From assembly GCA_048594885.1 (NCBI GenBank), contig JBMDXB010000013.1:24115-88114 (forward strand): a stretch of 64,000 bases of DNA, read 5' to 3'. Of this stretch, positions 7,441 to 60,934 are shown in pieces; within the stretch, counting starts at the first letter, position 1, and every line of letters starts with the position of its first letter. A program made the translations under genes and the position numbers. A model generated the notes under the pieces. The model worked only from the letters and a program-made list of their open reading frames with translations. It ran no database searches and was not told where the DNA came from. This DNA comes from Vicinamibacterales bacterium (GTDB lineage Bacteria; Acidobacteriota; Vicinamibacteria; Vicinamibacterales; 2-12-FULL-66-21).

Positions 7441-7479
7441 TGTTTGTCTCTGGGCCGCAAACGTGCGGCACAATAAGAC

Positions 7480-21040: not shown

Positions 21041-21041
21041 T

Positions 21042-23938: not shown

Positions 23939-23945
23939 GCAGAGC
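23918..23945. repeat. Short heptamer array (GCAGTAG)x3 + GCAGAGC overlapping the last 7 codons and the stop of the VWFA gene
   Basis: gcagtag gcagtag gcagtag gcagagc. Translated ...AVGSRQ*. The unit contains TAG. Confidence 0.75.
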
Positions 23946-30616: not shown

Positions 30617-30817
30617 GAGCGACTCTCCATCCGTCGCACGGCGTCTGCGGGTGCCATGATTTCGAGTCCGAAGCGCGCGGCTGCCGACTCGAAGTGTCGC
30701 CGATTGAACGTGACGACCACTTCGGTGCGCCCGTTCACGGCCGTTTCGAGTACGAGGTCGTCTCCGGGGTCTGGCAGCAGCGGCCGCCACAAGAACGAGA
30801 CCCGAACGGGCTCTATC
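30613..30817 (-). pseudogene. C-terminal half of a PIN-domain toxin (TIGR00305-like); N-terminal half absent
   Basis: 'IEPVRVSFLWRPLLPDPGDDLVLETAVNGRTEVVVTFNRRHF..FGLEIMAPADAVRRM' matches only the distal half of PIN toxins. The sole in-frame start is a GTG overlapping the TGA of the VWFA gene. Upstream in this frame is non-PIN sequence antisense-free inside an intact VWFA C-terminus. Confidence 0.45.
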
Positions 30818-32993: not shown

Positions 32994-33162
32994 TGCTGAT
33001 CCCTCAGCCGAAGAACGCGTGACTCGACGAGGCCACGTGCCGACGGCCTCAACGCGACGCCGCGACGACACGACGGCGCGCCGAAACAGACGTTACATTA
33101 TGACGTCGCCTCGTCGTGACGTCGTGTCGTCGTGCAGGGACCGTCGGTCCGTCTCAGGACCG

Positions 33163-35346: not shown

Positions 35347-35361
35347 CGCTCCGTTTCGCAA

Positions 35362-36573: not shown

Positions 36574-36579
36574 AACTTC

Positions 36580-36634
36580 TGCACCCTGCACCCTGCACCC
36601 TGCACCCTGCACCCTGCACCTGCACCCGGCACCG
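36580..36634. repeat. Direct heptamer array (TGCACCC)x5 + 3 degenerate units filling the gap between two TPR genes
   Basis: tgcaccc x5, tgcacc, tgcaccc, ggcaccg. On the coding (minus) strand the unit is GGGTGCA. The gap between the stop at 36636 and the start at 36573 is 62 nt. Confidence 0.9.
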
Positions 36635-40800: not shown

Positions 40801-41494
40801 GGACTCTCACTTCCTGGACCATGTCGTTGTTCAGCGTGACGATGACGCCGTTGTTGGAACCGATGTCGATCAGGCTCGAGCCGTCGAGCGACACGGTGTT
40901 GGCGGACGACCGGATGCCGTTGACGGTATAGCCCTGCGTGTTGTTCGCGCCGCCGCCGAAGCTGACGCTCTCCATCTGGGCCTGATCCGGAGCGACGACG
41001 CCCGGCAGGATGCGCAGGAGCTCGAGCGAGCTGCGGCCGATGATCGACAGATTGTCGATCTGCTGTGCGTTCAGCACGCCTTCGCGAGCGCCTGTCTCGG
41101 TCTGGATGATTTCCGTCTGACCGGTCACGGTCACGGTTTCCGTCTGCGCGCCGACGTCTAACCGGACGTCGAGGCCGCGCGCGTCGTTCGGGCCGAGCGT
41201 GATGCCCTTCTGATCGTAGGTCTTGAAGCCGGCGAGCTCGACCTTCAACTCGTAGGTGCCGGGGAACAATCCGGCGAAGAGATACCCGCCGCGATCGTCC
41301 GTCTGCGCCTCGCGCACGTTGCGAGTGCCGGTGTTGGTGAGGACCACCATCGCGCCGGGCAGCACTCCGCCGGATGCATCCGACACGGTGCCTCGGATTG
41401 TTGCGGTGGCGCTTCCTTGAGCGAACGCGGTGCTGGCGGCTGGCAATGCAGCAAGCCACGCAGCGAAGAACCATCGAACGAGCCGTCGGTGCAT
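37877..41494 (-). CDS. TonB-dependent receptor with CarboxypepD_reg-like domain
   Basis: 1205 aa. Signal peptide MHRRLVRWFFAAWLAALPAASTAFAQG. 'GTVSDASGGVLPGAMVVLTNTGT...DDRGGYLFAGLFPGTYELKVELAGF'. Ends ...FVLKYYF. Confidence 0.88.
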   Translation of the reverse strand: MHRRLVRWFFAAWLAALPAASTAFAQGSATATIRGTVSDASGGVLPGAMVVLTNTGTRNVREAQTDDRGGYLFAGLFPGTYELKVELAGFKTYDQKGITLGPNDARGLDVRLDVGAQTETVTVTGQTEIIQTETGAREGVLNAQQIDNLSIIGRSSLELLRILPGVVAPDQAQMESVSFGGGANNTQGYTVNGIRSSANTVSLDGSSLIDIGSNNGVIVTLNNDMVQEVRVQSSNFAAEYGSSGMNVSAVTKGGSSRFSGTIYDYWRDHRFGANDRSNSITGTPKPKSTFNYPGGNIGGPILIPGLEWNKNRDKAFFFLGLEIQRQKVDPGSFLSTTLTDKMRAGDLSELLPGNCVGQSLNMGCAQLVIPRGFPNAGQPAPNNNFAPYMHPLGRVLASMYPSPNLVTENNRYNYVFNQLQPTNRHDLKFRIDYNLTNNTRAYVRTAIEGENAESARGIWWASSDVALPTPTYGDNKGRSVSGNIVSVLSPTMTNEVLVSWSRLTLDNFWRDPSKVRIDSYPELGAYNQGFFPNQSPYLPLNIITSGWGQGGPGNLWAPAMDVYAYNDALQFSDKLTKLAGSHGLKFGFTAERGQKQQNFENDEMGYMEFDPWATGGTGNALSDLLTGRLSLYRQGTAIPRGEWRYWNFDAFAQDSWKLRPNFTLEYGVRAGYWTNNAELNKFGGYFDPTFYDPRQPTFLDPGTFEQLNGWRYATRGQAPLGGVDNRSPFAMPRVNVAWDITKNSNNVVRGGFGIFYNRNMGNLEYAYLRIPPTSYQVNINSSAGSNLGGGVGLTYDTIRELDWTTRVSTLGLNTLNPDSSKWPKTYSFSASYARRIFFNQVIEGAYVGTRGRDLVSRRQLNVVPLGALLSGTLNGIDLSVPINRVALDSSVLNQLRPFQAYPSVTDWSFEGESDYDSLQVTLSRQTGRRLQYFAAYTLGRNRGTNSGNGEYGNIDPFDPSRTYGVLPSDRTHILNVSWNAFLPDGAKGAMNNPFGRGLLNGWQLSGISTLASGVPIFLGFSGQAGGDGITQALFGTPDIIGNPGPGGGDRGGLVPIYSCDPRTGNTGIGEKVLDIGCIKIPAFGENGSLVPEYNLRMPTRINHDLTLFKNFQLPSEQKLQFRVGFFNLFNQAWATTQSAADVDLVLEATCNVTVSGLPNGAGGVADNVCDPAGGFQYTANTLANFGKINLKRGRRVIEFVLKYYF

Positions 41495-41676
41495 AGTTAC
41501 CTCAGTTGACGCCGCTACACGGCCTCCGAGGTGGAGCCGGTGCGGTGGACGAGCCTCGCCTGAGTGGTGCCGGAGGCGCCCCCAGAGGTTATGGATCTAT
41601 TCGCCGCGCGTCAATGCGCTGAAGTAAGGGCAGGGGATATATCGAAAGACATATCCCGGTTCCCAGGTGCGCGGAA

Positions 41677-42303
41677 TCAGGTCAGTTGCACGATGCCGCG
41701 CTGCAGCGCGACGGTCACGGCTTCGGTCCGGTCGGCGACGCCGAGCTTGCCCAGGATGCTACTGACGTGCAGCTTCACGGTGCCCTCCGTGACGTCGAGC
41801 TCGTCGGCGATCGTCCGGTTCCGCTTGCCGCTGACGAGCAGCCGCAGAACATCCAGCTCCCGCGCGGACAGCTGCGAACGCCCCATGCGATTGGCGAGCC
41901 GCTCGGCGACCTCCGGCGGGATGTGCCGCTGGCCGGCCGCCGCCTTGCGGATCGCCTGAACCAGCTCCTCGCGCTGCACCGATTTGGTCAGATAGGCCAT
42001 CGCGCCGGCCTGCAGCGCGTTGTAGATCTCCTCGTCGCCGACGTAGGTGGAAATCACGATGATTCGCGCGTCCGGAAACTCCCCATGGATCGCCTGCGTC
42101 GCTTCCGCGCCGTTGAGTCCGGACAGCCGCAGATCCATCAGCGTCACGTCGGGGCGGTGCGCGCGAAAGAGCTGAATGGCCTGCTCGCCCGTGGCCGCCT
42201 CGGCGCAGACGGTCATGTCCGGTTCGAGCGCGATGATGCTCGCCAGGCCGACGCGCACCAGGTAGTGGTCGTCCACGAGCATGATTCTCAGCTTCGCGGC
42301 CAT
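41677..42303 (-). CDS. NarL/LuxR-family response regulator
   Basis: 208 aa from the ATG at 42303. Receiver domain 'IMLVDDHYLVRVGL...DVTLMDLRLSGLNG'. LuxR HTH 'LSARELDVLRLLVSGKRNRTIADELDVTEGTVKLHVSSILGKLGV'. The longer ORF-track N-terminus overlaps the kinase gene and is rejected. Confidence 0.9.
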   Translation of the reverse strand: MAAKLRIMLVDDHYLVRVGLASIIALEPDMTVCAEAATGEQAIQLFRAHRPDVTLMDLRLSGLNGAEATQAIHGEFPDARIIVISTYVGDEEIYNALQAGAMAYLTKSVQREELVQAIRKAAAGQRHIPPEVAERLANRMGRSQLSARELDVLRLLVSGKRNRTIADELDVTEGTVKLHVSSILGKLGVADRTEAVTVALQRGIVQLT

Positions 42304-44432
42304 ACGCCTCCGAGGATCGGACGCAGCGCCGCGGCCGCCGGCCGCCGCACGGGGACGATCACTGTGATGCTGGTGCCTTCGCCGGGACGGCTGTCGATCT
42401 GGACAATCCCTCCGAGCTTGTCGACGCGTTCCTGAATCCCCTGCAGCCCGAAGTGCGCCCCCGGCAGATCCATGCGTCCCTGTCCGATGCCGCAGCCGTC
42501 GTCGTGCACGGCGAGCCGCACGTCGTCGGAGCCGAAGCAAAGCAGGATGTCGATGCGCGTCGCGTCGGCATGCCTGAGCGCATTGGTGAGCGCCTCCATG
42601 CCGATGCGCAGCAGGTGGTGCTCCTGCGCGGCATCGAGCCGCTGCAACGTGCCTTCGACGCGCACGTCCACACGCGCGGACGTGCCGAGGGTCATCTGCC
42701 GCGCGAGGCTGGTGAGCGCGCCGGCGAGATCCCGGCTTTCGAGCGCCTCGGAGCGCAGGTCCATGACCGACCGCCGCGCCTCTTCGAGGCTGTAGCGCAG
42801 CATCTGGCGCGCGACGTCGAGGGAACGGCGCGCGGCTGCCGGCGACGAATCGAGGCTGCCGGTGACGGCTTCGAGCTGCAGCGTGATGCCGGCGAGCCCC
42901 TGCTCGAGCGTGTCGTGCAGCTCGCGCGCCACGCGGTTGCGCTCGCTGAGAATCGCCTGGAACTGCTGCCGCTTCTGTCGCGCCGTCGTCCGCGCCCAGA
43001 ACGCCGCGATCAGTCCCACGAGCGCGACGATGGCCACGAGCACGACCGTGTGCCGCATCGTCCACCACGATGCCGACGCGATCACGGTGACGTCCTCGGG
43101 CGAGCGCAGGAACAGGCGGAACGACGGCGGCGGTCCCCACTGGTAGGCGTAGACGCCGGTGACCGAGACCGAGCTGCCGGGCGGGATGTCGGCGACGGCG
43201 TGCTGATACGACGGATCGAGTCCGGCGTCGAACACCGTCTCGCCCATCTTGACCACGAGCACGAGCGCGGTGGGACTCCTGAGCACCCCGAGCAGCTCTC
43301 CCTGCATGCGAACGAGCTCCGCGTCATGCTCGGCGTTCAGCGCGTTGGTCGCGTGCACGACGACGGCGTCCGCAGGCAGCTCGGTGCCGACGATGCGGAA
43401 GACGGCGTTCCTCAGAATGGGCCTGCCCGGCGTGACGGCGGGGAAGCCGACCGCCTCGACGACCACGCCTGGCTGGACGCGCGTGTCCTGCTCGGTTTCG
43501 ATGCGCGCGCCGCTCTCCGCGTCGCGCAGGTACAGGACGTGGCGCACGTCGCGGAACGTCGTCGAGGTCGGAAAATCGCTGACCTGCACCGGACTGCCGA
43601 GCACCTGGCTGGTGACGACGCCTCGCACCCGGATGCGGCGATTCACCTCGCCAGCCGACGAGTAGTTGTAGATGCTGCCGATCGATCGCACCGGCAGCGA
43701 GAACGGCTCCGGCGGCGCCGATTCGACGACGATGTCGGTGGTGTGCCCGCCGAAGATGGAAACGCCGCGCAGCTGGCCCGTCCGGCCGAACAGCGTGCCC
43801 GCGTTCCCGCGCAGCCGTACGCGCGCGTCGACGAACCGATGGAGGTCCTCCATCGTGTAGCTCCAGAACGACGCCCGCACGAAGCCGTCGTCGGTGGCCA
43901 CCTCCGCGAACAGCGTGTGCTGGCGCGGATCGGACGCCAGCCACGCGCGCTGGACGACGCCTTCGATCTCGACGTAGTCGCAGTCATGACGGCCGGTGAG
44001 GAGTTGCCCGAGCGGCAGGCGCTTTGGTACCGGCAGCGACGCGCGGCCGGTGCGGCGGATCCGCTCCGGCACCACGTTGGGCGCGAAGCCGCCGCGGATC
44101 GTGCGGCCGTCGATCTCGATGACGTCGCCACGCCGCACGGCCTGGAACGCCTTCAGCACGTCTCCACGCTCAGGAGGCTCGACGAACTGGCCGGACTCGC
44201 CGTCGTGCAGGAACAGCAGGCCGCGGCCGATTTCGTCGAAGTGCGTGACCGTGCCGCGAATGCGAACCGGGTAGCGCCGGGCGCCCTCGTCAGGTGTGAG
44301 CGCGCGGATCGCCTTGATGCGCGTGAGCGGAACCGCTGGAGCTGTCCGCACAGCCTGCGCGTCCGCAGTGGTCGCCAATGCGGTGGCGAGCAGTAACGCG
44401 GTTGCAGAGATGAGGGGAACGCTGCGGCGCAT
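42288..44432 (-). CDS. Sensor histidine kinase (HisKA_3/HATPase_c) with large periplasmic sensor domain
   Basis: Start at the ATG at 44432 ('MRRSVPLISATALLLATALATTADA'). About 470-aa extracytoplasmic region with three similar 'V/IR[IV]RGxVT'-initiated modules. TM helix 'HTVVLVAIVALVGLIAAFWA'. 'RVARELHDTLEQGLAGI' H-box. C-terminal ATPase 'HDDGCGI...GLQGIQERV'. 16-nt overlap with the regulator gene. Confidence 0.88.
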   Translation of the reverse strand: MRRSVPLISATALLLATALATTADAQAVRTAPAVPLTRIKAIRALTPDEGARRYPVRIRGTVTHFDEIGRGLLFLHDGESGQFVEPPERGDVLKAFQAVRRGDVIEIDGRTIRGGFAPNVVPERIRRTGRASLPVPKRLPLGQLLTGRHDCDYVEIEGVVQRAWLASDPRQHTLFAEVATDDGFVRASFWSYTMEDLHRFVDARVRLRGNAGTLFGRTGQLRGVSIFGGHTTDIVVESAPPEPFSLPVRSIGSIYNYSSAGEVNRRIRVRGVVTSQVLGSPVQVSDFPTSTTFRDVRHVLYLRDAESGARIETEQDTRVQPGVVVEAVGFPAVTPGRPILRNAVFRIVGTELPADAVVVHATNALNAEHDAELVRMQGELLGVLRSPTALVLVVKMGETVFDAGLDPSYQHAVADIPPGSSVSVTGVYAYQWGPPPSFRLFLRSPEDVTVIASASWWTMRHTVVLVAIVALVGLIAAFWARTTARQKRQQFQAILSERNRVARELHDTLEQGLAGITLQLEAVTGSLDSSPAAARRSLDVARQMLRYSLEEARRSVMDLRSEALESRDLAGALTSLARQMTLGTSARVDVRVEGTLQRLDAAQEHHLLRIGMEALTNALRHADATRIDILLCFGSDDVRLAVHDDGCGIGQGRMDLPGAHFGLQGIQERVDKLGGIVQIDSRPGEGTSITVIVPVRRPAAAALRPILGGVWPRS

Positions 44433-44638
44433 GGCGTTTCGGCCCGTAGGAGCGGCGAGTATAGCACCGCGCTCCAGAGCCGCCGAAGGGGCGACGGCCT
44501 GCCGCGTCCCCGTGATGCCGCCGGATTTCCGGCAGCCATGGGTCTCCGTGGCGGCAATCCGTCGGACCATCCACCACCCCTGAAGAATGGTGTCGGCGGA
44601 ACGCGGCACGGCGCCGGCCGCGGAATGCGTTTTGCTCG

Positions 44639-47600
44639 GTGCGGCGCACGACCGTACCGGTCTGTCTGTTCCAACGCCGACGGGATTCCATCTCTACAAG
44701 GGTTCTGAATTTGACACGCCTCGTCCTGACGAGTGCCGCCGCCATCCTTGCCGCGGCCAGCGTACCGCTGCAGCCGCAGCCGCGCATCGTGCCAGGCGGG
44801 GCGCTCGAGCTGGCGTACCAGTCGAACAACAAGGGCGCGGCGTGGCTCGAGCGGTTCGAGTACGCGAAGGCGGCCGGGGCGTTTCGCGAAACCTTGCGCC
44901 TGGCGCCGGCGCTCGCCATCGCACGGTTCAATCTCGCGCTGGCGCTGCATTACGACGGGCAGCCGGAAGCGGCCGAGCGCGAGGCGCGAACGGCCGCGGC
45001 GGCCATGGACACGCCGCACGCGGATTACCTGCTCGGGCTGCTCGCGAAGGCGCAGGGACAGGCCGGTCCGGCTGCGGCGGCGTTCGCGCGCGTGCTGCAG
45101 CGCGATCCGCAGGATGCGGGCGCCGGAATCATGCTCGGCCAGATCAAACTGCAGCAGGGCGACGCGCCGGCGGCTGCGGCGCTGCTGCAAGCCGCGCTGG
45201 ACGCCGAGCCGTACAACGCAACCGCCGCCTACAACCTCTCGATCGCGCTGTCGCGCGCGGGCCGCGCGGACGACAGCCGGCGGATGCTGGCGCGCTTCGA
45301 ATCGCTGCGAGAGAGCGGCACGGCCACCACGCTTGGCAACGGCTACCTCGAACAGGGCAGGTACGCGGAGGCCATCGTGTCCACCGGCGCCGAGCGTGAT
45401 CTCGTCGATCGTCAGATGCCGCGCGTGCGGTTCGCGGCGGAAGATCTCCCGCGCCCGGCACGCCGTTCCGCGGCCGGCGATCCCATCGGCCAGCGGTTCG
45501 AACCGGCAACGCTCGACGCGGCGGGCCGCGGGCGGATTGCGTCGGCGCTCAGCGGCGCGGTGACGCTCCTCGACTACGACAACGACGGCCATCTGGATCT
45601 GATGGAGGCTGCGCCCGACGGCGACCGTCTGTGGCGCAATGCGAGCGGACGCTTCACGCCGGTGGCCGCCGCACGGTTCCCGCGGCGCTTTCCGGCGGGC
45701 GTCACGACCGGCGTCGTCGCCGCCGACTACAACAACGACGGCAGGGCGGACCTGCTCCTCCTGCGGTATGGCGGTGCCGCGCTCTACCGCAACGACGGCG
45801 GCGGCCGCTTCACCGACGTCACGGCAGCCGCCGGACTCACATTCACGGCAACCGAGCTGCCGCTGGCGGGCGCCGCCGTCGATCTCGATCACGACGGCGA
45901 CCTCGACATCGTGCTGCCGGGGTTCGTCAATCTCGATGGCAGCCGCTCGTCGAAGCCGCTCGTGTTTCCCGATGATTTTCCCGCGGCTCCCACACGCGTG
46001 TGGCGGAACAACGGCAACGGGACGTTCACCGATGCGACGGCGCCTTCGAAGGTGGCCGCGTGGCGCGGGGTCGCGATCGTCCCGACCGATTTCGATCTGC
46101 AGCGCGACGTCGACCTGCTGATCGCGGGCGGCGACGGCCGGCTGGCGCTCTTCCAGAACCAGCGCGACGGCTCTTTTCGGGATGCAGCCGCTGAGGCGGG
46201 CCTTCCGTCGGGAGCGCCCGTCTCCGCGGTGGCTGCGGCAGACGTGAACCGCGACGGCCGCACGGATTTCCTCGTCGGCCGCGCCGGCGGTCCCGCCGCT
46301 CTGGCACTGAGCACCGGCCGTCATCGCTTCCGCATCGACCCGCTCGCCGGTATGACGGCCGTCATGGCGGCGCAGCTCCTCGACTACGACAATGACGGCC
46401 TCGTGGACGTGATGGCGTGGACGCGCGATGGGGCACGGCTCCTGAGGTCTCTGGGCGACGCATGGCAGGAGATGCCGGGCGAGACGCTCGCGGCCGCGAC
46501 CCGCGGGGTGGAGCTGCCGGCGCCGGCGTCGGGCCGCGCCGTTGCCGTGGGCGATCTCGACGGCGACGGCGATCACGACCTCGTGGTGCAGACGCGTGAC
46601 GGCACACGGATTCTGCGGAACGAGGGCGGCCACGGCCGCGGCGCGCTCGCCGTGCGGCTTGCGGCACGCGTCAGCAACCGCAGCGCCGCCGGCAGCAAGG
46701 TCGAGATGCGCGCCGGCAGCCTGCTGCAGCGGCGCGAAACCTCGCTGGCCACGCCGCCCGCCGCGCCGCTCGACGTCCTGTTCGGTCTCGGTGGCCGGCG
46801 CACGGCCGATGCCGTGCGCGTGTTGTGGCCCGCCGGCATAGTGCAGGCGGAGCTCGATCCGGCGGCCGGCCGGCCTCTGGTCGTCACCGAGTTGAATCGG
46901 AAGCCGTCGTCGTGTCCGTACCTGTTCACCTGGAACGGCAGCCGATTCGAGTTCGTGACGGATTTTCTCGGCGGCGGGGAGTTCGGCTACTGGGCCGCGC
47001 CCGGCGCACGCAACCAGCCCGATCCGGACGAGTACGTCCGCATTCCCCCGGGCGCGCTGCAGGCGCGGAATGGCCGATACGAGCTTCGCGTCACCAACGA
47101 ACTGGAAGAGGTCGTGTACCTGGATCACCTCCATCTCGTGGCCGTCGCGCATCCTAACGGAACCGAGGTCTACCCGAACGAAGGTCTCGTCTCGCCGCCG
47201 TTCCCCCGGGCGACACTGCACGTGGTCACGAACCGCAGATCGCCGGCCGCCGTGGTGGACGATCACGGGCACGATCTGCGCGAGCGAACGCTCGCGATCG
47301 ATCGCCGGTATGCGGACGACTTCGCGGTGACGACGATTCGCGGCTACGCCGAGCCGCACGGCGTGACGATCCGGGTAGACGAGGCGGCGGACGTGCTGCT
47401 GCTGACTGGCTGGACCGACTACGCGTTTTCGAGCGACAACGTCGCCGCGTCGCAGCGCGGGCTGCAGCTCTCGCCGCCGGCGCTGCACGTACGCGACGCG
47501 CGGCATGGGTGGCGGACGGTCGTCCCGGAGATCGGCATCCCGGCCGGCCGTCCGCAGACCGTCGTCGTGGATCTCCGCCGGCCCGAGTTGCGTGGGCATC

Positions 47601-48196
47601 GCGAGTTCCGCATCGCCACCAACATGCGCGTGTATTGGGATCGCATCGCGATGGCCGACGTGGCCGGCGCGAGTGCGCCGCAGACCGTGCGGCTGGATCC
47701 TGCCGCGGCGAACCTGACCTGGCGAGGGTTCTCGGGCGAGGCGAGCACCGACGGACGCGAGCCGTTCGCCTATGACTACACGCGCGTCTCGCTGGTCTCG
47801 CCGTGGAAGACCATGGTGGGCCGATACACGCCGGAAGGCGACGTGCGGCCGCTCGTCGCATCAGTCGACGATCGTTTCGTCGTCGCACGCCCGGGCGATG
47901 AGATCGCGATCGATTTCGACGCCGCGACGCTGCCGGCGCTGTCCGCCGGCTCGACCCGCACGTTTCTGTTGTACGCGGACGGCTTCAGCAAGGAGATGGA
48001 TCTGAACTCGGCCAGCCCGGATCGCGTCGAGCCGCTGCCGTTCCATGGCATGCAGGCGTATCCGCCCGCCGGAGGCATCAACCTGGCCACGCGCATGTCG
48101 AGCGCCGCCGGCCGCGGGCGGGTCGTGGCGGCTCCCGTGCCGTCACTCGATGTTCTTCTGCTGCTGTCGCGTCAACGGCCGCGCCTGCCCATGTGA
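44639..48196 (+). CDS. TPR + FG-GAP/VCBS + ASPIC/UnbV (CRTAC1-like) + about 420-aa C-terminal domain of unknown function
   Basis: 1185-aa ORF. Start uncertain (ATG 44639 or TTG about 44711 giving 'TRLVLTSAAAILAAASV'). N-terminal TPR ('FARVLQRDPQDAGAGIMLGQIKLQQGD...'). 'LLDYDNDGHLDLM', 'AADYNNDGRADLLL', 'VDLDHDGDLDIVL'. UnbV-like 'RVSNRSAAGSKVEMR...VLFGLG...VLWPAG'. Tail begins 'SCPYLFTWNGSRFEFVTDFLGGGEFGYW'. Confidence 0.8.
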   Translation: MRRTTVPVCLFQRRRDSISTRVLNLTRLVLTSAAAILAAASVPLQPQPRIVPGGALELAYQSNNKGAAWLERFEYAKAAGAFRETLRLAPALAIARFNLALALHYDGQPEAAEREARTAAAAMDTPHADYLLGLLAKAQGQAGPAAAAFARVLQRDPQDAGAGIMLGQIKLQQGDAPAAAALLQAALDAEPYNATAAYNLSIALSRAGRADDSRRMLARFESLRESGTATTLGNGYLEQGRYAEAIVSTGAERDLVDRQMPRVRFAAEDLPRPARRSAAGDPIGQRFEPATLDAAGRGRIASALSGAVTLLDYDNDGHLDLMEAAPDGDRLWRNASGRFTPVAAARFPRRFPAGVTTGVVAADYNNDGRADLLLLRYGGAALYRNDGGGRFTDVTAAAGLTFTATELPLAGAAVDLDHDGDLDIVLPGFVNLDGSRSSKPLVFPDDFPAAPTRVWRNNGNGTFTDATAPSKVAAWRGVAIVPTDFDLQRDVDLLIAGGDGRLALFQNQRDGSFRDAAAEAGLPSGAPVSAVAAADVNRDGRTDFLVGRAGGPAALALSTGRHRFRIDPLAGMTAVMAAQLLDYDNDGLVDVMAWTRDGARLLRSLGDAWQEMPGETLAAATRGVELPAPASGRAVAVGDLDGDGDHDLVVQTRDGTRILRNEGGHGRGALAVRLAARVSNRSAAGSKVEMRAGSLLQRRETSLATPPAAPLDVLFGLGGRRTADAVRVLWPAGIVQAELDPAAGRPLVVTELNRKPSSCPYLFTWNGSRFEFVTDFLGGGEFGYWAAPGARNQPDPDEYVRIPPGALQARNGRYELRVTNELEEVVYLDHLHLVAVAHPNGTEVYPNEGLVSPPFPRATLHVVTNRRSPAAVVDDHGHDLRERTLAIDRRYADDFAVTTIRGYAEPHGVTIRVDEAADVLLLTGWTDYAFSSDNVAASQRGLQLSPPALHVRDARHGWRTVVPEIGIPAGRPQTVVVDLRRPELRGHREFRIATNMRVYWDRIAMADVAGASAPQTVRLDPAAANLTWRGFSGEASTDGREPFAYDYTRVSLVSPWKTMVGRYTPEGDVRPLVASVDDRFVVARPGDEIAIDFDAATLPALSAGSTRTFLLYADGFSKEMDLNSASPDRVEPLPFHGMQAYPPAGGINLATRMSSAAGRGRVVAAPVPSLDVLLLLSRQRPRLPM

Positions 48197-48237
48197 GTCC
48201 TGTGCGGACTATCGGTCCGAAGTAAAGGAGTTGGTTG

Positions 48238-50363
48238 TGCGCAGTAACAACAACGGCGTCCGCGTTCGCACCGGGTGGACGACCTGGATTTCAAGGCTCT
48301 CCGGCGCGGCGCTGCTCTTCCTCACCGTCACCGGGCTCGCCGTGACGTTCGGTCCCTTCCACACGCTCGTGCAGTGGGGGCTGTTGACGCACACCGTGGC
48401 CGGCGTGCTGCTCCTCGTGCCGCTCGCTTGGTACGTCGCGCGGCACTGGCTCGATTACCGCGCGTACCAGATGTCGTCGGTCGTGCTGCTCGGGTACGTC
48501 TCAGCCGCCGGCCTGATCGTGTGCCTCGTCTCTGGAATCGTCGTCACGTGGCAGGGGCTGCTCGGCCTCCGCATGTCGTGGGCGTGGCGCCAGGTGCACC
48601 TGATCTCGACGTTCGTGGCGGTCGGCGCGGCCGCCCCGCACATCATCCAGCTCCTGCTGCGCGTATTCCGCGTCATGCCCGCCGCCTCGCGCTACGTGAT
48701 CGCGTCGTCGGCGCTCGGCGCCGCCGGGTTGGTGGTCGTCGCGCTCCTCCCGCTCGCCTACCCGGATCCGCAGTATGTCAACGAGTTCCCGGCGGACTAC
48801 AGCTATGCGTTCGGCAAGGATCGACCGTTCGCGCCGAGCCTCGCGCGGACGACCACCAACGGCGCGTTCGACGCGCGCACACTCGCGGGCTCGCGGACCT
48901 GCGGAACCAGCAACTGCCACAGCGAAATCGTCAACGAGTGGCTGCCGAGCGCGCACCGCTACGCCGCGATGGATCCGCTGTTCCAGTTCATCCAGACGAC
49001 GATGGCCAAGCAGAACGGGCCGGAGTCGACGCGGTACTGCGGCGGCTGCCACGATCCGATTTCGCTCTTCTCCGGGACGAAGAACATCTTCGCGAAGGAC
49101 CTCACCGGTCTCCACGGCTACCAGGAAGGCGTGTCGTGTCTCGCGTGCCACTCGATCAAGGAAACGGACATCAAAGGGAACGCAGCGTACACGATCGGGC
49201 AGCCGTCCGAGTACCTGTGGCAATGGGAATCGCAGGGCGCCGGGCGGCTCGCGCGCGACTTCCTGATTCGGACCTATCCCGACGAGCACAACAAACTGAG
49301 CAAGCGCGCGTTCAAAGCGCCAGAGTACTGCGCCGCGTGCCACAAGCAGTTCATCGACTCCGAGGTCAACAAGGTTGGCTGGGTGCAGCTGCAGAACCAG
49401 TACGACAACTGGGCGAACAGCCACTGGAACTCCAAGGGTGATCCGAAGAAGACCGTGGAGTGCCGCGAGTGTCACATGCCGCTGGTGGACTCGAGAGACC
49501 CAGCCGCGGGCGACATCGCGGACTACAACCGCAGGGCGACCGATCGCAAGCATCGCAGCCATAGGTTCCTGGCGGCGAATCAGCTCATCCCGGCGCTCCT
49601 CAAGCTGGAGGGATGGGAACAACACACGCGCCTGACCGAACAGTGGCTCCAGGGGAAAGTGCGAATTCCGGAGATCGAGGAGAAGTGGGCGCAGGGCGCC
49701 GTCGTCAAGGTCGCGCTCGACGTCGGCGTGACGAAGCGGGCCGGAGTGCTGCCGATCCGCGTCGTGCTGACCTCGAACAAGGTCGGACACGACTACCCGA
49801 CGGGTCCGCTCGACATGATCCAGAGCTGGGTCGAGCTGCACGTCGTCGACGAAGAGGGGCGCAAGGTGTTTTCCTCGGGCACGCGCGACGAACGCAATTT
49901 CATCGCGCCGGGGTCGTTTCTCTTCAAGGCGGAGCCGGTCGATCAGCACGGTAATCTGATCGATCGTCACAATCTGTGGGAGATGGTCGGCGTCCGCTTC
50001 CGCCGGTCGTTGTTCCCCGGCTACTCCGACACCGTCGAGTACAACGTCGACTGCGGCAGCGTGTTCTCGCCGATGCCGGCTCACGGCGACGGGACGCGCG
50101 CACCAGCCGCGCCGGCCAGAGGCGACGGCAGCCAGCAGTTCGACGTGCCGCGCCCCGCGCGCGCGGGCCGGTACATGGTGACGGCGATCCTGCAGTATCG
50201 GAAAGTGGATCAGTTCCTGACCAATTACCTGCTCGGCGAGAACTCCGGCATCACCGCGCCGGTCATCGAGATCAGCCGGGCGACGGCGGTCTTCGAAGTG
50301 CCTCCGGCGCCCGCCGGAAAGCCCGGCGCGGCGGCGCCGATCCGGATCGTGGCCGCAGAATGA
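48238..50363 (+). CDS. Membrane-anchored multiheme c-type cytochrome (4 CXXCH + 1 CX4CH), paralog of 10490-13360 without the TPR tail
   Basis: GTG at 48238 preceded by AAGGAG. About 5 TM helices. Motifs CGTSNCH (48900-48920), CGGCH, CLACH, CAACH, CRECH. Motif order and spacing are collinear with the 10490 product ('...W..SAH...', 'KHRSHRF' vs 'KVKSHRF'). Confidence 0.8.
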
Positions 50364-52912
50364 GCGATGACAATCGTCCACGCCGTCTGAGCCGCCGCCA
50401 GCGACGCGTCGCCCTCACCGCCGTGCTGCTGCTGGGCGCGTTCGCCATCGGCGCGGTGGTGCTGGTGCGCGCCTACCGGCAGAATCAACCCGCGCAGTAC
50501 CGTCCGGGCGAAGCCAATGCCGACATCACGGCGTCACTTGCGCGGGACCTGCCGCCTGACGCCGCGCGGCCGGTATTCGCAGACGTGACCTCCGAGGCGG
50601 GTCTCGGCGGCTTCACCACCTTTGCGGGCGCGCGCACGTCGCAGCTTCCTGAAGACATGGGTCCGGGCGTCGCGTGGGGCGACTACGACAACGACGGTGA
50701 CGACGACGTGTTTCTGGTCAGCGCCGGCGGGCCGCTCGGCGCGAAGGCGGAACAGTTGGCGCCGAGCGCGCTATTCGAGAACCTGGGCGGCGGACGCTTC
50801 CAGCGAGCCGCCGGCTTTCCGGAGCCACGTATCATCGGCATGGCCGCGGCGTGGGGCGACTACGACGGGGATGGCTGGATCGACCTCGCCGTCAGTGGAT
50901 ACAACGCGCTGCTGCTGTTCCGGAACGACCGCGGCCGGTTCTCGCTCGATCGGCAGTTCGTCAGCCGGCCCGGATTCTGGTCGGGTCTCGCGTGGGGCGA
51001 CTACGACAACGATCGCCGGCTGGATTTGTACGTCTGCGGATACGTGCAGTACCTCGAGACGGGCTCGGCGCACGCTGCCGTCACGCAACAGTACGGCAGA
51101 TCGGTTCCCTTCACGCTCAACCCCGCGTCGTACGAGCCGCAGGCGAACCTGTTGTTCCGCAACACCGGACGCGGCACGTTCGTCGAGACGGCGGCGCGGC
51201 TCGGCGTCGCCAACCCGGAAGGCCGCAGCCTGAGCGCGCTCTGGCACGACTTCGACGACGACGGGTGGCTGGACCTCTACGTTGCCAACGACATCTCCGA
51301 CAACGTGCTGTATCGAAACGCCAACGGCCGATTCAAAGACATCAGCCATCCGGCGTGGGTTGCGGACTACCGCGGCGCGATGGGACTGGCGGCCGGCGAC
51401 TGGAACCGCGACGGCGACGACGACCTGTTCATCACCCACTGGATCGCGCAGGAGAACGCGCTCTACGACTCGCATGCGAAACAGTCGGGAGCGTTGCGCT
51501 TCGCGGATGCCGCCGACGCCGTCGGCCTCGGTCAGGTGGCGCTGCCGATGGTCGGATGGGGCACGGAGTTCCTCGATTTCGACAGCGACGGGTGGCTCGA
51601 TCTCGTCGTCGCCAACGGCAGCACGTTCGAGACGGAGACTGCGCCAAAGACGCTGGTGCCGCAGCGGCCGTTCCTCTTCTGGAACCGCCGCGGCGAGCAC
51701 TTTTACGACGTCGCGCCGCTCGCGGCGCCGCTCTCGAAGGCTCACGTCGCGCGAGGCCTCGGCGTATCGGACTTCGACGGGGACGGAGACCTCGACGTAC
51801 TGATCGCGCGCAACGGAGGCGGTGTGCAACTGCTGCGCAACGACACCGCCGCGGGGCAGTGGCTGCAGATCGTGCTGCGCTCTCGCGCGTCCGCCGATGC
51901 GCCGACTGTCGTCGCGCGTGGCGCCGCCGCCGTGGCGCAGGCAGGTTCGGTCCAGATCCGGCGCAGCGTCACGAGCGCATCGTACCTATCGCAGAGCACG
52001 AGCACGCTGCACTTCGGGCTCGGAGCCGCAGCCCAGGTGGACAAGGTCACGGTGCGCTGGCGCGCGGGAGTCGTGACGGAGCACGGCCCGCTCGCCGCGG
52101 GCCGACGGTGGGAGATCACCGAGGGAGATCCGATTCCGCGGGAAATCCCACGTGCAGCCGGTACGCCGACGAGCGCGGGCGCCGCGCCCGCGTCCGACCG
52201 CGACCGCATCGTGGCGTTCTGGGACCGGCATCGAGCGGCGATGCACGCGCTGAAGTCGGAGAACGACCCGGCGAAGGCAGCGGGCCTGTTCGAGCAGGCA
52301 CTGGCGATCGATCCGGCGCACGAAGACGCGCGGTTCTACCTGGCGACGGCGCTCGCGGCACAGGGAAACACGGACGGGGCGCTGCGCCATTACGAGCAGA
52401 TGAACCGCACGAATGCGCGGAGCCACCGCAGCCTGACCGGCTGGGCCCGGCTGCGCGCGCTGACCAGCCGCGGGCCGGCCGACCTCGCGGCTGCGGAGGA
52501 CGCGCTGAACCGGGCGCACGATCTGAATCCGGAGGAAACCGGCGCGCTCGTGATGCTGGGCGAGATCGCGCTGATGCGCGGGCAGCACGCGGTGGCGGAG
52601 CGGCGGCTCAAAGCCGTGGCGCAGGCGAACGCGCGCGCCGCTGGGGCCTTCTTCCTCCTCGGCTACATCCGCTGGAAGGCCGGCGATGCGGAGCACGCTC
52701 GCGAGTATCTCGAACAGGCGCGAACGGCGCTTGGGCCGGAGTGGAAGCCAGCCGGATCGACGGCTGAAGGCGACGTCGCCCGCAGCGTCGCGCACGCCGC
52801 GACCCTGCTCTCGCGTTTCTGGGACCAGTGGGACGGCGTCGCCAGGGCGCCATCGTCCTATTCGCGTCTCGACGCCTACCTGCGCCGACCGGCGCGTTCG
52901 GGGTCACAATAG
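50360..52912 (+). CDS. Membrane-anchored FG-GAP/VCBS + ASPIC/UnbV (CRTAC1-like) protein with C-terminal TPR domain
   Basis: ATG at 50360 overlaps the cytochrome TGA (ATGA). 'RRVALTAVLLLGAFAIGAVVLV' signal-anchor. 'FADVTSEAGL...VAWGDYDNDGDDDVFLV'. UnbV-like '...SYLSQSTSTLHFGLG...VRWRAG'. C-terminal TPR ('LFEQALAIDPAHEDARFYLATALAAQGN...'). Confidence 0.85.
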   Translation: MSDDNRPRRLSRRQRRVALTAVLLLGAFAIGAVVLVRAYRQNQPAQYRPGEANADITASLARDLPPDAARPVFADVTSEAGLGGFTTFAGARTSQLPEDMGPGVAWGDYDNDGDDDVFLVSAGGPLGAKAEQLAPSALFENLGGGRFQRAAGFPEPRIIGMAAAWGDYDGDGWIDLAVSGYNALLLFRNDRGRFSLDRQFVSRPGFWSGLAWGDYDNDRRLDLYVCGYVQYLETGSAHAAVTQQYGRSVPFTLNPASYEPQANLLFRNTGRGTFVETAARLGVANPEGRSLSALWHDFDDDGWLDLYVANDISDNVLYRNANGRFKDISHPAWVADYRGAMGLAAGDWNRDGDDDLFITHWIAQENALYDSHAKQSGALRFADAADAVGLGQVALPMVGWGTEFLDFDSDGWLDLVVANGSTFETETAPKTLVPQRPFLFWNRRGEHFYDVAPLAAPLSKAHVARGLGVSDFDGDGDLDVLIARNGGGVQLLRNDTAAGQWLQIVLRSRASADAPTVVARGAAAVAQAGSVQIRRSVTSASYLSQSTSTLHFGLGAAAQVDKVTVRWRAGVVTEHGPLAAGRRWEITEGDPIPREIPRAAGTPTSAGAAPASDRDRIVAFWDRHRAAMHALKSENDPAKAAGLFEQALAIDPAHEDARFYLATALAAQGNTDGALRHYEQMNRTNARSHRSLTGWARLRALTSRGPADLAAAEDALNRAHDLNPEETGALVMLGEIALMRGQHAVAERRLKAVAQANARAAGAFFLLGYIRWKAGDAEHAREYLEQARTALGPEWKPAGSTAEGDVARSVAHAATLLSRFWDQWDGVARAPSSYSRLDAYLRRPARSGSQ

Positions 52913-52919
52913 CGTTCCG

Positions 52920-54173
52920 ATGAACGCGCTCCTCGCGGCCGGCTGTCTCGCGGTAGCCGGCCTGACTGTCATTCCTTCGAAAGAAGTCGTGCTCCTGTTT
53001 CACGACGGCGGCCATTTGCTGGCCGTGCGCCGATCAATCGACCGCGGCGAGGAGCGCTTCAAGCCGGCGGTCGCTGCGCTCGAGGAGGATGCGAAGCGTG
53101 CTCTGGCGATGTCGCCGGTGTCGGTGATGGACAAGACCGTCACGCCGCCGAGCGGCGACAAGCACGACTACATGAGCCAGGCGCCGTACTGGTGGCCCGA
53201 TCCGTCGAAGCCTCACGGCACGCCGTACATCCGCCGCGACGGCGAGCGCAATCCGGAGATCCAGCGCATCAGCGATCACGACAATCTCGGGCGGCTGACG
53301 TCCGCCGTGTCGACGCTGGGCCTGGCGCACTTCCTCACCGGCCGCGACGAATACGCGGCGCGCGCCGCGCGGCTGCTGCGCGCGTGGTTCATCGATCCGG
53401 CGACGCGCATGACTCCGCATTTGAAATTCGGACAAGGTATTCCGGGAATCACGGAGGGCCGCGGCATCGGGATCATCGAGACGCGCAACCTTCCGGCGAT
53501 GCTCGATGGCGTGCAGCTGCTCAGGCTTGCGAGCTCGCGCGCCTGGACGGACGGCGACGAGGCGGCGCTCCAGTCCTGGATGCGCGCGTATCTCTCCTGG
53601 CTGCTCGAGAGTCCGCACGGCAAGGATGAATCGCGCAACGGCAACAATCACGAGACGTGGTACGACGTCCAGGTCGCCGCGCTCGCGCTCTACACGCACC
53701 AGCCGGATATCGTGCGGCGCACGCTCGAGGGCGCGAAGCAGCGCATCGCGCGGCAGATCGAGCCGGACGGCGGGCAGCCGCGCGAACTGGAGCGCACGCG
53801 CTCGTTCGACTACAGCGTCATGAACCTGACCGGCTTCTTCGACCTGGCGACGCTCGGCGAGCGTACCTCGGCGCATCTGTGGGAGTACCGATCGCCGGAC
53901 GGCCGCAGCATCAGGCAGGCGCTCGACTTCCTGATCCCGTACGCCGCAGGCGAGCGCGCGTGGCCGCACAAGCAGATTACGTCGTTCCGGCCTGCGAGCC
54001 TGACGCCGCTGCTGCGCCGCGCCGTGGTGGCGTGGAAAGAGCCAAAGTACGCCGCGCTCGCAGAACGGCTCGGTGGCGCAGGCTATCGAGTCGATCTGGC
54101 CGTTCCCGGGCTCCCTTCGGAGATCTCGCCTTCAACGGGAGCACGGGAGAAGGGGGAGCCACTTTTCTTTTGA
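52920..54173 (+). CDS. Alginate-lyase-family (PF05426/AlgL-like) polysaccharide lyase candidate
   Basis: 417 aa from the ATG at 52920. 'SGDKHDYMSQAPYWWPDP' and 'GNNHETWYDVQVAAL' resemble the conserved NNHSYW block of AlgL-type lyases. Hydrophobic N-terminus. Confidence 0.6.
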   Translation: MNALLAAGCLAVAGLTVIPSKEVVLLFHDGGHLLAVRRSIDRGEERFKPAVAALEEDAKRALAMSPVSVMDKTVTPPSGDKHDYMSQAPYWWPDPSKPHGTPYIRRDGERNPEIQRISDHDNLGRLTSAVSTLGLAHFLTGRDEYAARAARLLRAWFIDPATRMTPHLKFGQGIPGITEGRGIGIIETRNLPAMLDGVQLLRLASSRAWTDGDEAALQSWMRAYLSWLLESPHGKDESRNGNNHETWYDVQVAALALYTHQPDIVRRTLEGAKQRIARQIEPDGGQPRELERTRSFDYSVMNLTGFFDLATLGERTSAHLWEYRSPDGRSIRQALDFLIPYAAGERAWPHKQITSFRPASLTPLLRRAVVAWKEPKYAALAERLGGAGYRVDLAVPGLPSEISPSTGAREKGEPLFF

Positions 54174-54253: not shown

Positions 54254-55690
54254 ATGCGAATCAGTCTGCTCGCCCTCGTGGTGGTCCTCGCGGCCGCCGG
54301 CGCGGGGGAATCCCGTCTTGCCGGCCAGGCGGCGACACGCCCGAACATCCTGATGGTCATCGCCGACGACTGGTCGGCGCCGGACGCCGGCGTGCTCGGC
54401 AACGCGGGCGTGCGGACGCCGGCGTTCGATCGCGTCGCCAATGAGGGCGTGCGGTTCGACAATGCGTTCGTCGCGGCGCCGTCGTGCACGCCGTCGCGGG
54501 CGGCAATCCTCACCGGCCGCTGGCCGCATCAGCTCGAGGAGGGCGCCAATCTGCATGGCACGCTGCCCGCGAAGTTCGCGGTGTATCCCGATCTGCTCGA
54601 ACGCGCCGGCTACGCCGTCGGCCTGACCGGCAAGGGTTGGGGACCCGGCGACTTCAAGGCCGGCGGCCGCACGCGCAATCCGGCGGGGCCGAACTTTCCA
54701 AGCTTCGCGGCGTTCCTCAAACAGCTCCCGGCCGACAAGCCGTTCGCCTACTGGATCGGTCCGAGCGATCCGCATCGTCCCTACGAGGCGGGCGCCGCGC
54801 GCGAGACGGGACTGAAGCCGGCGGCGGTGCGCGTGCCGGCGACGCTGCCCGACCTGCCGCCAGTCCGCGCCGACCTGCTCGACTACTACTTCGAGGTCGA
54901 GCGGTTCGACAAGGCGCTTGCCGAGGCGATCGCGTTGCTCGAGCAGAGCGGACGTCTCGACAACACGATCGTCATCGCCACGGGTGACAACGGCAGGCCG
55001 TTCCCGCGCGACAAGGCGGCGATCTACGACGGCGGCTCGCGCGTGCCGCTGGCGATCCGGTGGCCGCGAGGGATCACCACGCGGCGCGCCGTTGACGCGT
55101 TCGTTTCGTTGACCGACATCGCGCCGACCGTCCTCGAAGCCGCGGGCGTGAGGCCCGCGGCGGAGATGACGGGGCGCAGCCTGATGCCGCTGCTCCAGGG
55201 GAAGGAGGCGCCGGGACGCGAGCACGTCTTCATCGAGCGCGAGCGGCACGCCTTCGTTCGCGCCGGCAACGCGAGCTATCCGGTACGCGCGGTGCGGACG
55301 CGGCAGCATCTCTACATCCGCAATCTGGCGCCGGACCGCTGGCCGGCGGGCGATCCGATCTGGGTGAACTCCGTCGGCCCGTTCGGCGACGTCGATCACG
55401 GCCCGTCGAAGGACTTCATCCTTGCCTATCGCGACGACCCCGCCATCGCGCCGTTCTACGCGCTCGCGTTCACGAAGAAGCCGGCGGAGGAGCTCTACCT
55501 GCTCGCGAGCGATCCATACCAGTTGGTGAACGTTGCCGATCGGCCGGAGCACGCCGCTGCGAAAGCCCGTCTGCGCACGCAGCTCGATGAATGGATGCGC
55601 AGCAGCGGCGACCCGCGAGCGGCCAGCGATGCCGACCCGTTCAGCGCGTATCCGTACTACGGCGCCGGCTCCAAGTGGCCTCGCAAGTGA
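54254..55690 (+). CDS. Formylglycine-dependent sulfatase (arylsulfatase family)
   Basis: 478 aa from the ATG at 54254. Signal 'MRISLLALVVVLAAAGAG'. 'NILMVIADDW'. C-x-P-S-R motif 'APSCTPSRAAILTGR'. Confidence 0.88.
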   Translation: MRISLLALVVVLAAAGAGESRLAGQAATRPNILMVIADDWSAPDAGVLGNAGVRTPAFDRVANEGVRFDNAFVAAPSCTPSRAAILTGRWPHQLEEGANLHGTLPAKFAVYPDLLERAGYAVGLTGKGWGPGDFKAGGRTRNPAGPNFPSFAAFLKQLPADKPFAYWIGPSDPHRPYEAGAARETGLKPAAVRVPATLPDLPPVRADLLDYYFEVERFDKALAEAIALLEQSGRLDNTIVIATGDNGRPFPRDKAAIYDGGSRVPLAIRWPRGITTRRAVDAFVSLTDIAPTVLEAAGVRPAAEMTGRSLMPLLQGKEAPGREHVFIERERHAFVRAGNASYPVRAVRTRQHLYIRNLAPDRWPAGDPIWVNSVGPFGDVDHGPSKDFILAYRDDPAIAPFYALAFTKKPAEELYLLASDPYQLVNVADRPEHAAAKARLRTQLDEWMRSSGDPRAASDADPFSAYPYYGAGSKWPRK

Positions 55691-60907: not shown

Positions 60908-60934
60908 TCAGCATTCGGCATTCAGCATTGACCC
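60861..60934. repeat. 74-bp near-perfect hairpin built from inverted heptamer arrays (AATGCTA/AATGCCG)x4 - acaa - (GGCATTC/AGCATTC)x4
   Basis: gggtcaatgctaaatgctaaatgccgaatgccaaa | acaa | tttggcattcagcattcggcattcagcattgaccc. 35-nt arms with 4 mismatches. Lies between the TBDR stop (60941) and the Nramp-fusion start. Confidence 0.9.

Follow-up and report, generated by a model that had tools for sequence, protein, structure and literature searches.

NapC/NirT-type quinol dehydrogenases are membrane-bound tetra- or pentahaem cytochromes whose genes lie beside the gene of a periplasmic partner. In CbcL of Geobacter sulfurreducens, an inner-membrane bc-cytochrome that acts as a menaquinol oxidase, a di-haem b domain is combined with nine c-haems (PMC9129911). 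Cytochrome c552 of Thermochromatium tepidum, Geobacter ExtKL and GSU2801 have been grouped as the pentahaem cytochrome (PHC) family, with an immunoglobulin (Ig)-like domain (PMC11976967). The ExtKL product, MccSep, is a sulfur/polysulfide reductase; its haems 1, 3, 4 and 5 are bis-His ligated, haem 2 is His/Cys ligated, and the active site consists of haem 2 and a selenocysteine from an Ig-domain loop (10.1101/2025.11.18.688581). Here we analyzed a 64-kb stretch of DNA (called the window below; G+C content 66.8%), whose proteins have their nearest relatives in Vicinamibacterales/Luteitalea (Acidobacteriota). The window contains two cassettes in which the gene of a pentahaem cytochrome is followed by that of a CRTAC1-like beta-propeller protein. 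They are named A1, C1, B1 (cassette 1) and A2, C2, B2 (cassette 2), A and B being propellers and C cytochromes. In related loci, the conserved unit comprises the cytochrome, the downstream B propeller and a tetratricopeptide repeat (TPR) domain.

Like the PHC family, C1 and C2 have an alpha-helical cap with five c-haem sites and, after it, an Ig-like beta-sandwich. However, the known PHC members are soluble or lack a polytopic membrane domain and have no CRTAC1 or TPR partner, whereas C1 and C2 have both. Moreover, haem 1 has a CX4CH site in C2-type proteins, the Ig-like domain has an invariant KVGH motif of its own, and neither the His/Cys-ligated haem 2 nor the selenocysteine of MccSep is present in the C1/C2 family. 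With CbcL, the two cytochromes would share a polytopic b-haem membrane domain and a periplasmic multihaem c domain on one polypeptide, and a likely role in electron movement between the quinone pool and the periplasm. CbcL has six HydC/FdnI-type transmembrane (TM) helices and nine c-haems; it lacks an Ig-like domain and passes electrons to soluble periplasmic cytochromes. In contrast, the membrane domain of C1 and C2 has five helices and resembles DUF4405 at best, the haem domain has another fold with five c-haems, and a propeller/TPR partner is dedicated to the cytochrome. The likeness to NapC/NirT proteins (NrfH-NrfA, TorC-TorA, CymA) is a functional analogy, namely a membrane-bound multihaem cytochrome encoded beside the periplasmic protein it serves. 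NapC/NirT proteins have a single TM helix, no b-haem, another fold and known cofactor enzymes as partners, whereas C1 and C2 have five TM helices and gave no match to Cytochrom_NNT (PF03264) at E <= 0.01. Finally, the A and B proteins share FG-GAP_3 and UnbV_ASPIC domains (UnbV weak in A2) with the CRTAC1/ASPIC-UnbV family of animal cartilage acidic protein 1 (structure 9ETN). They differ from other CRTAC1-like proteins in being tied to a cytochrome by gene order and, via the TPR, also by fusion. To our knowledge, bacterial CRTAC1/ASPIC-UnbV proteins have no established function.

Conservation of the cytochrome-propeller pair

A preliminary description of the window had proposed that both regions encode, in order, a propeller protein, a pentahaem cytochrome with five TM helices and a second propeller protein coupled to the cytochrome by an ATGA overlap. 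All six genes are present in this order on the forward strand. In cassette 2, A2 (44639-48196, 1185 aa; alternative start TTG 44711) is an exported, long CRTAC1-like protein. It is followed by C2 (48237-50363), a 708-aa bc-type cytochrome whose b part is putative, with five predicted TM helices and five haem sites. C2 probably starts at GTG 48237, 40 nt after the A2 stop, because AAGGAG stands before this codon. B2 (50360-52912, 850 aa from ATG 50360) is the CRTAC1-like partner, with an N-terminal membrane anchor or signal, FG-GAP_3 (5e-38), UnbV_ASPIC (1.4e-13) and a C-terminal TPR (nt ~52229-52738) detected by Pfam. In cassette 1, A1 (7480-10437, 985 aa, exported) precedes C1 (10490-13360), a 956-aa bc-type cytochrome, again with a putative b part, that has five TM helices, an Ig-like domain and a fused C-terminal TPR (nt ~12662-13264, Pfam). 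B1 (13357-15060, 567 aa from ATG 13357) starts with what looks like a cleavable signal peptide, followed by an FG-GAP propeller and UnbV_ASPIC, without a TPR. At both cytochrome/propeller junctions, stop and start codons truly overlap as ATGA (50360-50363 for C2/B2, 13357-13360 for C1/B1). Exact-sequence look-ups of C1 and C2 gave no database record.

Relatives were collected as 163 loci from at least ten phyla, 80 of the C2 type and 83 of the C1 type. The C2-type loci came from a GTDB scan with one genome per species and are the best 80, all of them C2-type, of at least 590 relatives. Hosts of these best 80 belong to Acidobacteriota (several classes), Planctomycetota, Verrucomicrobiota, Gemmatimonadota, Chloroflexota, Poribacteria, Latescibacterota, Marinimicrobia and Bacteroidota/Rhodothermota, and include a Deferrimicrobium. 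Judging from the taxon names, the hosts are mostly from taxa of aerobic soil and water heterotrophs. For the C1 type, 80 loci were obtained by a profile scan of metagenomes and three had been fetched earlier. Altogether, the module is represented in no fewer than 590 species-level genomes and by thousands of proteins from metagenomes, often as several paralogous copies per genome.

The cytochrome was almost always followed by its propeller. A B2-like propeller, 41-71% identical to B2, was the next gene on the same strand in about 76 of 77 C2-type loci, and the sole exception among loci with enough downstream DNA had a 1.4-kb gap (L043). Among the 59 C1-type loci with at least 1.5 kb of downstream DNA, a B1-like propeller followed directly in 54 and lay within 3.5 kb in 57. 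The C2-type junctions were tight: 31 of 79 overlap, 16 of them by exactly 4 nt as in the window, and gaps are at most 30 nt in 66, counts that depend on start codons which are crude guesses. Identity to C2 and identity to B2 were strongly correlated over 70 loci (r = 0.90), indicating that cytochrome and propeller were inherited or transferred together. When the flanking open reading frames of the 80 C2-type loci were clustered all against all, nothing recurred except a stand-alone TPR; no porin, catalytic subunit or regulator did so.

Adjacency might merely reflect inherited gene order with no functional link. Besides the four propeller genes of the cassettes, the window has three more with FG-GAP repeats, of which two also encode UnbV_ASPIC; with seven in 64 kb, propeller genes are locally common. 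However, the pair is kept in at least ten phyla amid otherwise unrelated flanks, with start/stop overlaps and with domain fusions in both directions. Thus, we find a purely inherited order hardly credible. The preliminary description had made a Rosetta-stone argument for a complex. This argument, for a physical or a functional link, is strongly reinforced by near-universal adjacency, co-divergence, tight junctions and at least four mutually exclusive placements of the TPR.

As had been described, the position of this TPR differs between the two cassettes: it is on the cytochrome in cassette 1 and on the propellers A2 and B2 in cassette 2. In the wider set, it was fused to the cytochrome in 83 of 83 C1-type relatives, and none of their downstream B propellers carried one. 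C2-type propellers are either ~820-990 aa long with a C-terminal TPR or ~600 aa long without it. For 24 of the 28 TPR-less propellers, the gene that follows immediately supplies a TPR, homologous to that of B2 (confirmed by Pfam for five proteins), either as a stand-alone protein of ~250-300 aa or as the N-terminus of a second FG-GAP propeller of ~620-700 aa. Including the C1-type fusion, the TPR therefore occurs in at least four mutually exclusive architectures, all with the same three parts. Its two fusion points are the C-terminus of the cytochrome Ig-like domain and the C-terminus of the propeller UnbV domain. Since the TPR can be joined to either, these two C-termini would lie close to each other in a complex. 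The alternating fusion is thus a natural experiment on which surfaces meet.

The upstream propeller did not prove to be part of the conserved unit, as the proposal of a three-gene cassette had implied. Only 17 of 60 C1-type loci have a propeller gene in the position of A1, immediately upstream and on the same strand; it often stands behind a HisKA_3 kinase and a NarL-type regulator. A2-like genes (TPR, propeller, UnbV and a 418-aa domain) were found in 25 of 83 C1-type and about 10 of 80 C2-type loci, upstream or downstream and at times on the other strand; they were directly upstream in three C2-type loci. The best full-length A2 homologues (50% identity) are the third gene of operons of close relatives with the order C1, B1, A2-like, CN_hydrolase. 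Because the upstream propeller is optional, the conserved unit is restricted to cytochrome, B propeller and TPR, and A-type proteins are frequent accessories.

The two cassettes had also been described as duplicated. They are paralogous, as judged from sequence comparison, but ancient. C1 and C2 are 30% identical over the haem and downstream domains, and BLAST leaves their TM parts unaligned; B1 and B2 are 35% identical. A1 is nearest to B1 (43%) and farther from A2 (30%), and by this measure is not the counterpart of A2. A recent tandem duplication is ruled out by the 30% identity of the cytochromes. The two types correspond to large families. C2-type proteins (~700 aa, without TPR) number more than 3199, with 63-81% identity, in Acidobacteriota, Planctomycetota and Verrucomicrobiota. 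At least 8000 C1-type proteins (~950 aa, TPR always present) were found, mostly annotated as 'tetratricopeptide repeat protein'. The two modules are neighbors in a second phylum too: in a metagenome-assembled genome of Gemmatimonadota (L050, 1-14695), one locus has a C1-type pair directly followed by an A2-like gene, and this by a C2-type pair.

Membrane and haem domains of the cytochromes

The TM region of C2 (nt 48237-48761) has five helices bearing His42, His52, His70, His121 and His135. In the AlphaFold2 model, the helices span residues 17-38, 43-74, 81-108, 115-143 and 148-173. The topology is N-in, C-out, from the positive-inside rule and because the haem c domain must be periplasmic. 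The TM helices of C1 bear His39 and His98. Thus, the His residues that had been pointed out in the TM helices are present in both cytochromes. Conservation was measured over 121 cytochrome sequences of both types, with 61 C2-type sequences among those examined. His52 in TM2 (C2 numbering) was invariant in 121/121. A His near the periplasmic end of TM4 (His121 in C2, His98 in C1) was conserved in both types, although one alignment placed it three columns off. His70 (TM2) and His135 (TM4), near the cytoplasmic ends, were 100% conserved in the C2 type only. In C2-type proteins, the His residues are spaced by 18 residues on TM2 and 14 on TM4, and their depths match a periplasmic-side and a cytoplasmic-side pair. 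These spacings and depths would fit two b-haems in the C2 type and one outer b-haem in the C1 type, held between His residues of TM2 and TM4.

This arrangement agrees with the earlier suggestion that the TM His residues ligate b-haems, which the conservation pattern and sub-threshold DUF4405 similarity support, short of proof. PF14358 (DUF4405) matched five of five C2-type TM domains with 15.4-21.6 bits (E = 3e-4 to 0.03; cut-off 26.7), and no match was obtained on the C1 TM domain. Ni_hydr_CYTB reached E = 0.007 in one C2-type member and was not detected in C1 or C2. Searching the C2 TM domain against 1.84 billion representatives with phmmer returned 293 matches, all of them C2-type proteins or fragments. 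The domain therefore occurs in no other architecture that would give an extra clue to its chemistry.

The TM domain could instead be an anchor only, with His residues that do not bind haem, and the pentahaem domain would then serve soluble periplasmic carriers rather than the quinone pool. No Pfam family scores above its cut-off on this domain, its restriction to one architecture leaves it with no independent precedent, and the structural homologues c552 and MccSep are soluble. However, five helices exceed the need of an anchor, His52 is invariant across subfamilies that are ~30% identical, the TM4 His and the 18/14 spacings of the C2 type are also kept, and DUF4405-type matches were obtained in every C2-type member tested. 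We therefore consider a mere anchor improbable and favor a b-haem-binding domain linked to the quinone pool.

In the periplasmic part of C2, the first haem site is CX4CH (48900-48920) and the four others are CXXCH (49038, 49137, 49329 and 49461); C1 has five CXXCH sites (nt 11099, 11234, 11333, 11537 and 11684). The count of five motifs per cytochrome given previously is thus correct, with the qualification that the first site of C2 has a longer spacing. This CX4CH ('CGTSNCH') was kept in all 61 C2-type sequences, and all five sites, whose conservation in orthologs had been named as a critical point, were invariant in 121/121 sequences. Further invariant residues are H240, H351, H442, H518, M256, K370 and M414, of which H518 belongs to an invariant KVGH-x2-P-x-G-x2-D motif of the Ig-like domain.

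The AlphaFold2 model of C2, built from 121 sequences (pLDDT 76.7, pTM 0.76), showed a helical region at residues 200-480 and a beta-sandwich at 490-708, the Ig-like domain (nt ~49704-50360). Its only significant structural match in Foldseek was 5ZE8, the c552 of T. tepidum (E = 3.7e-8, Foldseek probability 1.0, TM-score on the target 0.58), and the same entry was matched by a profile search (hmmsearch, E = 1.4e-6). Sequence and model thus both assign the periplasmic part to the fold of T. tepidum c552 and MccSep/ExtKL, with a five-haem cap and an Ig-like stem. Similarity to MccSep itself was low: the NCBIfam ExtKL model gave 19.8-24.1 bits against a cut-off of 250, and the MccSep match in the PDB had E = 0.7. 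No Cys outside the haem motifs was conserved in the periplasmic part. Therefore the fold of MccSep is shared and its chemistry is not. MccSep-type sulfur chemistry was ruled out as a candidate activity because the Cys/Sec residues are absent. Four invariant His outside the motifs are available for five c-haems, so one haem may have a different or open distal position.

Partner proteins and genomic surroundings

B2 matched the CRTAC1 structure 9ETN with E = 5e-15 over 476 residues. A1, B1 and B2 scored above the Pfam cut-offs for FG-GAP(_3) and UnbV_ASPIC. For A2, the earlier assignment as an FG-GAP/UnbV protein holds for the propeller (FG-GAP_3, 1.5e-46, within 44639-48196), while UnbV_ASPIC (nt ~46692-46873) stayed below the cut-off, with 21.3 bits against 23.4. 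The N-terminus of B2 is a hydrophobic anchor and those of B1, A1 and A2 are signal-peptide-like, indicating that all partners are extracytoplasmic. Over 72 B-type sequences, the invariant positions were mainly Ca2+ sites of the DxDxDG type and structural residues, besides R92, E98-D99-M100, R338, M341, H360-W361 and R465. No Cys was conserved in these 72 sequences, and the sole conserved His (in H360-W361) is replaced in B1. Hence no redox-cofactor site is common to the B types, and a shared metal or cofactor site in the propeller was discarded as a candidate. On these grounds, nothing points to an electron path ending at the propellers, as the preliminary description had speculated. In MccSep, an enzyme of the same fold family, the active site is on the cytochrome itself.

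A related possibility is that the cytochrome is a wire from quinol to a propeller that acts as the terminal catalytic subunit and holds a metal, an organic cofactor or the substrate centrally. Many periplasmic redox enzymes fed by c-type cytochromes are indeed beta-propellers, among them cd1 nitrite reductase, NosZ and the pyrroloquinoline quinone dehydrogenases. Furthermore, the propeller is as strongly conserved as the cytochrome, B2-type proteins keep R92, E98-D99-M100, R338, M341 and H360-W361, and a CRTAC1-family gene lies inside hydrazine-synthase-like haem-protein clusters (PMC12758564). However, the propeller has no conserved Cys and no His cluster, the replacement of H360-W361 in B1 leaves no cofactor site common to the partner types, and the Pfam matches are confined to Ca-binding FG-GAP repeats and UnbV. 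We thus regard catalysis in the propeller as unlikely and retain a binding role for it.

The A proteins carry additional domains. A2 has an N-terminal TPR (aa ~63-247, nt ~44825-45379, Pfam) and a C-terminal all-beta region of 418 aa (46940-48193), which resembles a lectin-like jelly-roll in AlphaFold2/Foldseek analysis. Its 1047 homologues are always attached to CRTAC1-type proteins. The model (pLDDT 84.7) is all-beta, and Foldseek found jelly-roll pieces like those of discoidin, APC10/Doc1, neuropilin b1 and a lectin domain. Sequence searches of Pfam and the PDB gave no match for it, and the Foldseek matches are only to generic jelly-roll/lectin domains. The model suggests that this domain binds a ligand, possibly a glycan. 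In A1, a 450-aa N-terminal non-TPR domain precedes the FG-GAP propeller and UnbV_ASPIC (Pfam). Its residues 1-455 (7480-8844) gave weak Methyltransf_12/CheR matches only (E = 4e-4 and 2e-3), and it had no NCBIfam match and was absent from 88 loci (L001-L088) and from later C1-type loci. Behind a signal-peptide-like start, an exported S-adenosylmethionine-dependent methyltransferase-like domain would be odd.

Other genes accompany the module in part of the loci. Downstream of B1, a CN_hydrolase gene of the amidase/nitrilase superfamily (15179-16228, forward strand; Pfam 1.4e-37, below the cut-off of every NCBIfam model) has counterparts in 10 of 83 C1-type loci, all from the group nearest the window; it is a lineage-restricted companion of C1-type modules. 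In loci L085-L090, L092, L095, L099, L110 and L111, the first codon of this gene often overlaps the stop codon of the gene before it, and some copies are encoded on the opposite strand. No signal peptide was evident by eye, though it is the companion of a periplasmic module. Divergent from A2, on the reverse strand, lie a NarL-type response regulator (41680-42336) and a HisKA_3 sensor kinase (42291-44609), both identified by Pfam and NCBIfam. Such kinase/regulator pairs adjoin the cytochrome module in 18 of 83 C1-type loci, and this one is a possible dedicated regulator.

The wider surroundings resemble a polymer-utilization island. Five TonB-dependent-type outer-membrane proteins of the OMP_b-brl_4 type (Pfam) are encoded at 6-3572, 3810-7316, 16308-20198, 37877-41596 (reverse strand) and 60941-64000 (reverse strand); four have CarboxypepD_reg and three have Plug, and the fifth runs past the window end. 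An alginate lyase gene (52905-54173) comes directly after B2, followed by a sulfatase gene (54257-55690), and the window also encodes an Ldh_2 protein, a short-chain dehydrogenase/reductase and an SGL-domain (gluconolactonase-like) protein. These genes hint at polymer processing. The hint was given little weight, since neither glycan nor TonB genes are recurrent neighbors of C2-type modules.

The same genes bear on a further explanation, in which the TPR and propellers are assembly, stabilization or envelope-scaffold factors, or the module serves TonB-dependent glycan uptake. Consistent with it are weak TPR_CcmH_CycH matches (E = 3e-7 in B2 and 1.5e-6 in C1, all below the cut-off), the abundance of TonB-dependent-type outer-membrane proteins beside the alginate lyase and sulfatase, TonB-dependent receptor genes in 10 of 83 C1-type loci, and the lectin-like C-terminus of A2. 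However, TPR families cross-match one another, the glycan and TonB genes do not recur around C2-type modules, and a partner of 570-850 aa, coupled 1:1 and with 43-71% identity across phyla, would be unusual for a maturation factor. An assembly or uptake role is thus quite improbable, and substrate or partner binding remains our preferred function for these subunits.

Several other features of the window were recorded. Scans for promoters and terminators found no more candidates than in shuffled controls, save for one hairpin before A1. This hairpin (7401-7442; 19-bp stem with 14 G-C pairs and a T-rich tail) lies between an outer-membrane protein gene (stop 7316) and A1, and probably separates transcription units. 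Tandem heptamer repeats occupy the intergenic gaps at 3578-3690, 7316-7382, 15061-15177, 23918-23942, 36579-36633 and 60904-60929. Their period is always 7 and the unit differs each time (ATCGCTG x9.6; CAAAGGC x5 then GACCAAG x11.4; CTGCACC x8); several lie right at the stop codon of a large gene. At 3578-3690, GGTCCCT x8 is followed by its reverse complement, giving a long hairpin. Two adjacent reverse-strand genes of 758 and 732 aa (30816-33092 and 33163-35361) have good coding statistics; neither product matched a Pfam family at E <= 1e-5, and the 88 loci L001-L088 contained no homologue. Finally, a 449-aa protein (22589-23938) matches the Acidobacteria-specific von Willebrand factor A-domain model TIGR03436 (E = 4.7e-64), and its gene overlaps the end of an FG-GAP protein gene (21009-22604) by ~16 nt.

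Proposed electron path and significance

Taken together, these data favor a bc-type cytochrome that acts within an obligate periplasmic complex and connects the membrane with a site on the cytochrome or next to it, with the propeller and TPR as binding partners. We give this reading about an even chance. The cytochrome would consist of a five-helix inner-membrane domain with one (C1 type) or two (C2 type) b-haems, fused to the pentahaem c and Ig-like domains. It would associate with a Ca2+-binding CRTAC1-like propeller and a TPR that is fused to either protein or separate. Electrons would be exchanged with the quinone pool at the outer b-haem, by analogy with CbcL and NrfH/TorC-type proteins. 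In the C2 type, they would probably also cross the membrane via the second b-haem, and charge could be carried across. On the periplasmic side, the chain of c-haems would carry the electrons onward. Their site of reaction or exit would most likely be on the cytochrome, at the interface of haem cap and Ig stem as in MccSep, or at the contact with the partner. The propeller, the TPR and, in many loci, a lectin-like A2-type protein may take no part in the redox chemistry and serve to bind or dock a substrate or partner in the periplasm.

Several observations weigh against this scheme. The DUF4405 matches are below the cut-off and Foldseek similarity of the TM domain to b561/Dcytb/NOX is weak (Foldseek probability 0.3-0.6), and no quinone site could be named. 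Without the Cys/Sec of MccSep, catalysis at the cytochrome is an analogy only. With only four invariant non-motif His for five c-haems, M256, M414 and K370 are possible ligands. Finally, a propeller so strongly conserved, with 43-71% identity across phyla, could do more than bind.

A more specific version can be put forward: a new class of quinone-linked periplasmic oxidoreductase, in which the Ca2+ propeller and the lectin-like A2-type protein hold a polymeric or unusual substrate at an open haem. We consider this version rather doubtful. If true, it would represent an unrecognized respiratory or nutrient-processing activity, often present in multiple copies and spread in Acidobacteriota, Gemmatimonadota, Planctomycetota, Verrucomicrobiota and Bacteroidota/Rhodothermota, and it would give the CRTAC1 fold its first biochemical role.

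The fold of each part is already known, but their combination is not described in the literature searched; searches for UnbV, ASPIC or CRTAC1 with cytochrome or multihaem returned nothing on the module. The sole related remark was the one on CRTAC1-family genes inside hydrazine-synthase-like clusters (PMC12758564). The combination consists of a polytopic, His-bearing membrane domain on a c552-type cytochrome, its strict pairing with a CRTAC1-like protein, and a migrating TPR. Annotations of the cytochromes go no further than 'hypothetical', 'multiheme c-type cytochrome' or 'tetratricopeptide repeat protein'. Dominant phyla of soil and water encode many CRTAC1/ASPIC-UnbV proteins, and the module provides the first testable functional link for the bacterial members, to electron transfer. 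Orphan families thus become one testable system. If this system is quinone-linked, it would add an unrecognized branch to the electron-transport chain of organisms about whose respiratory flexibility little is known.

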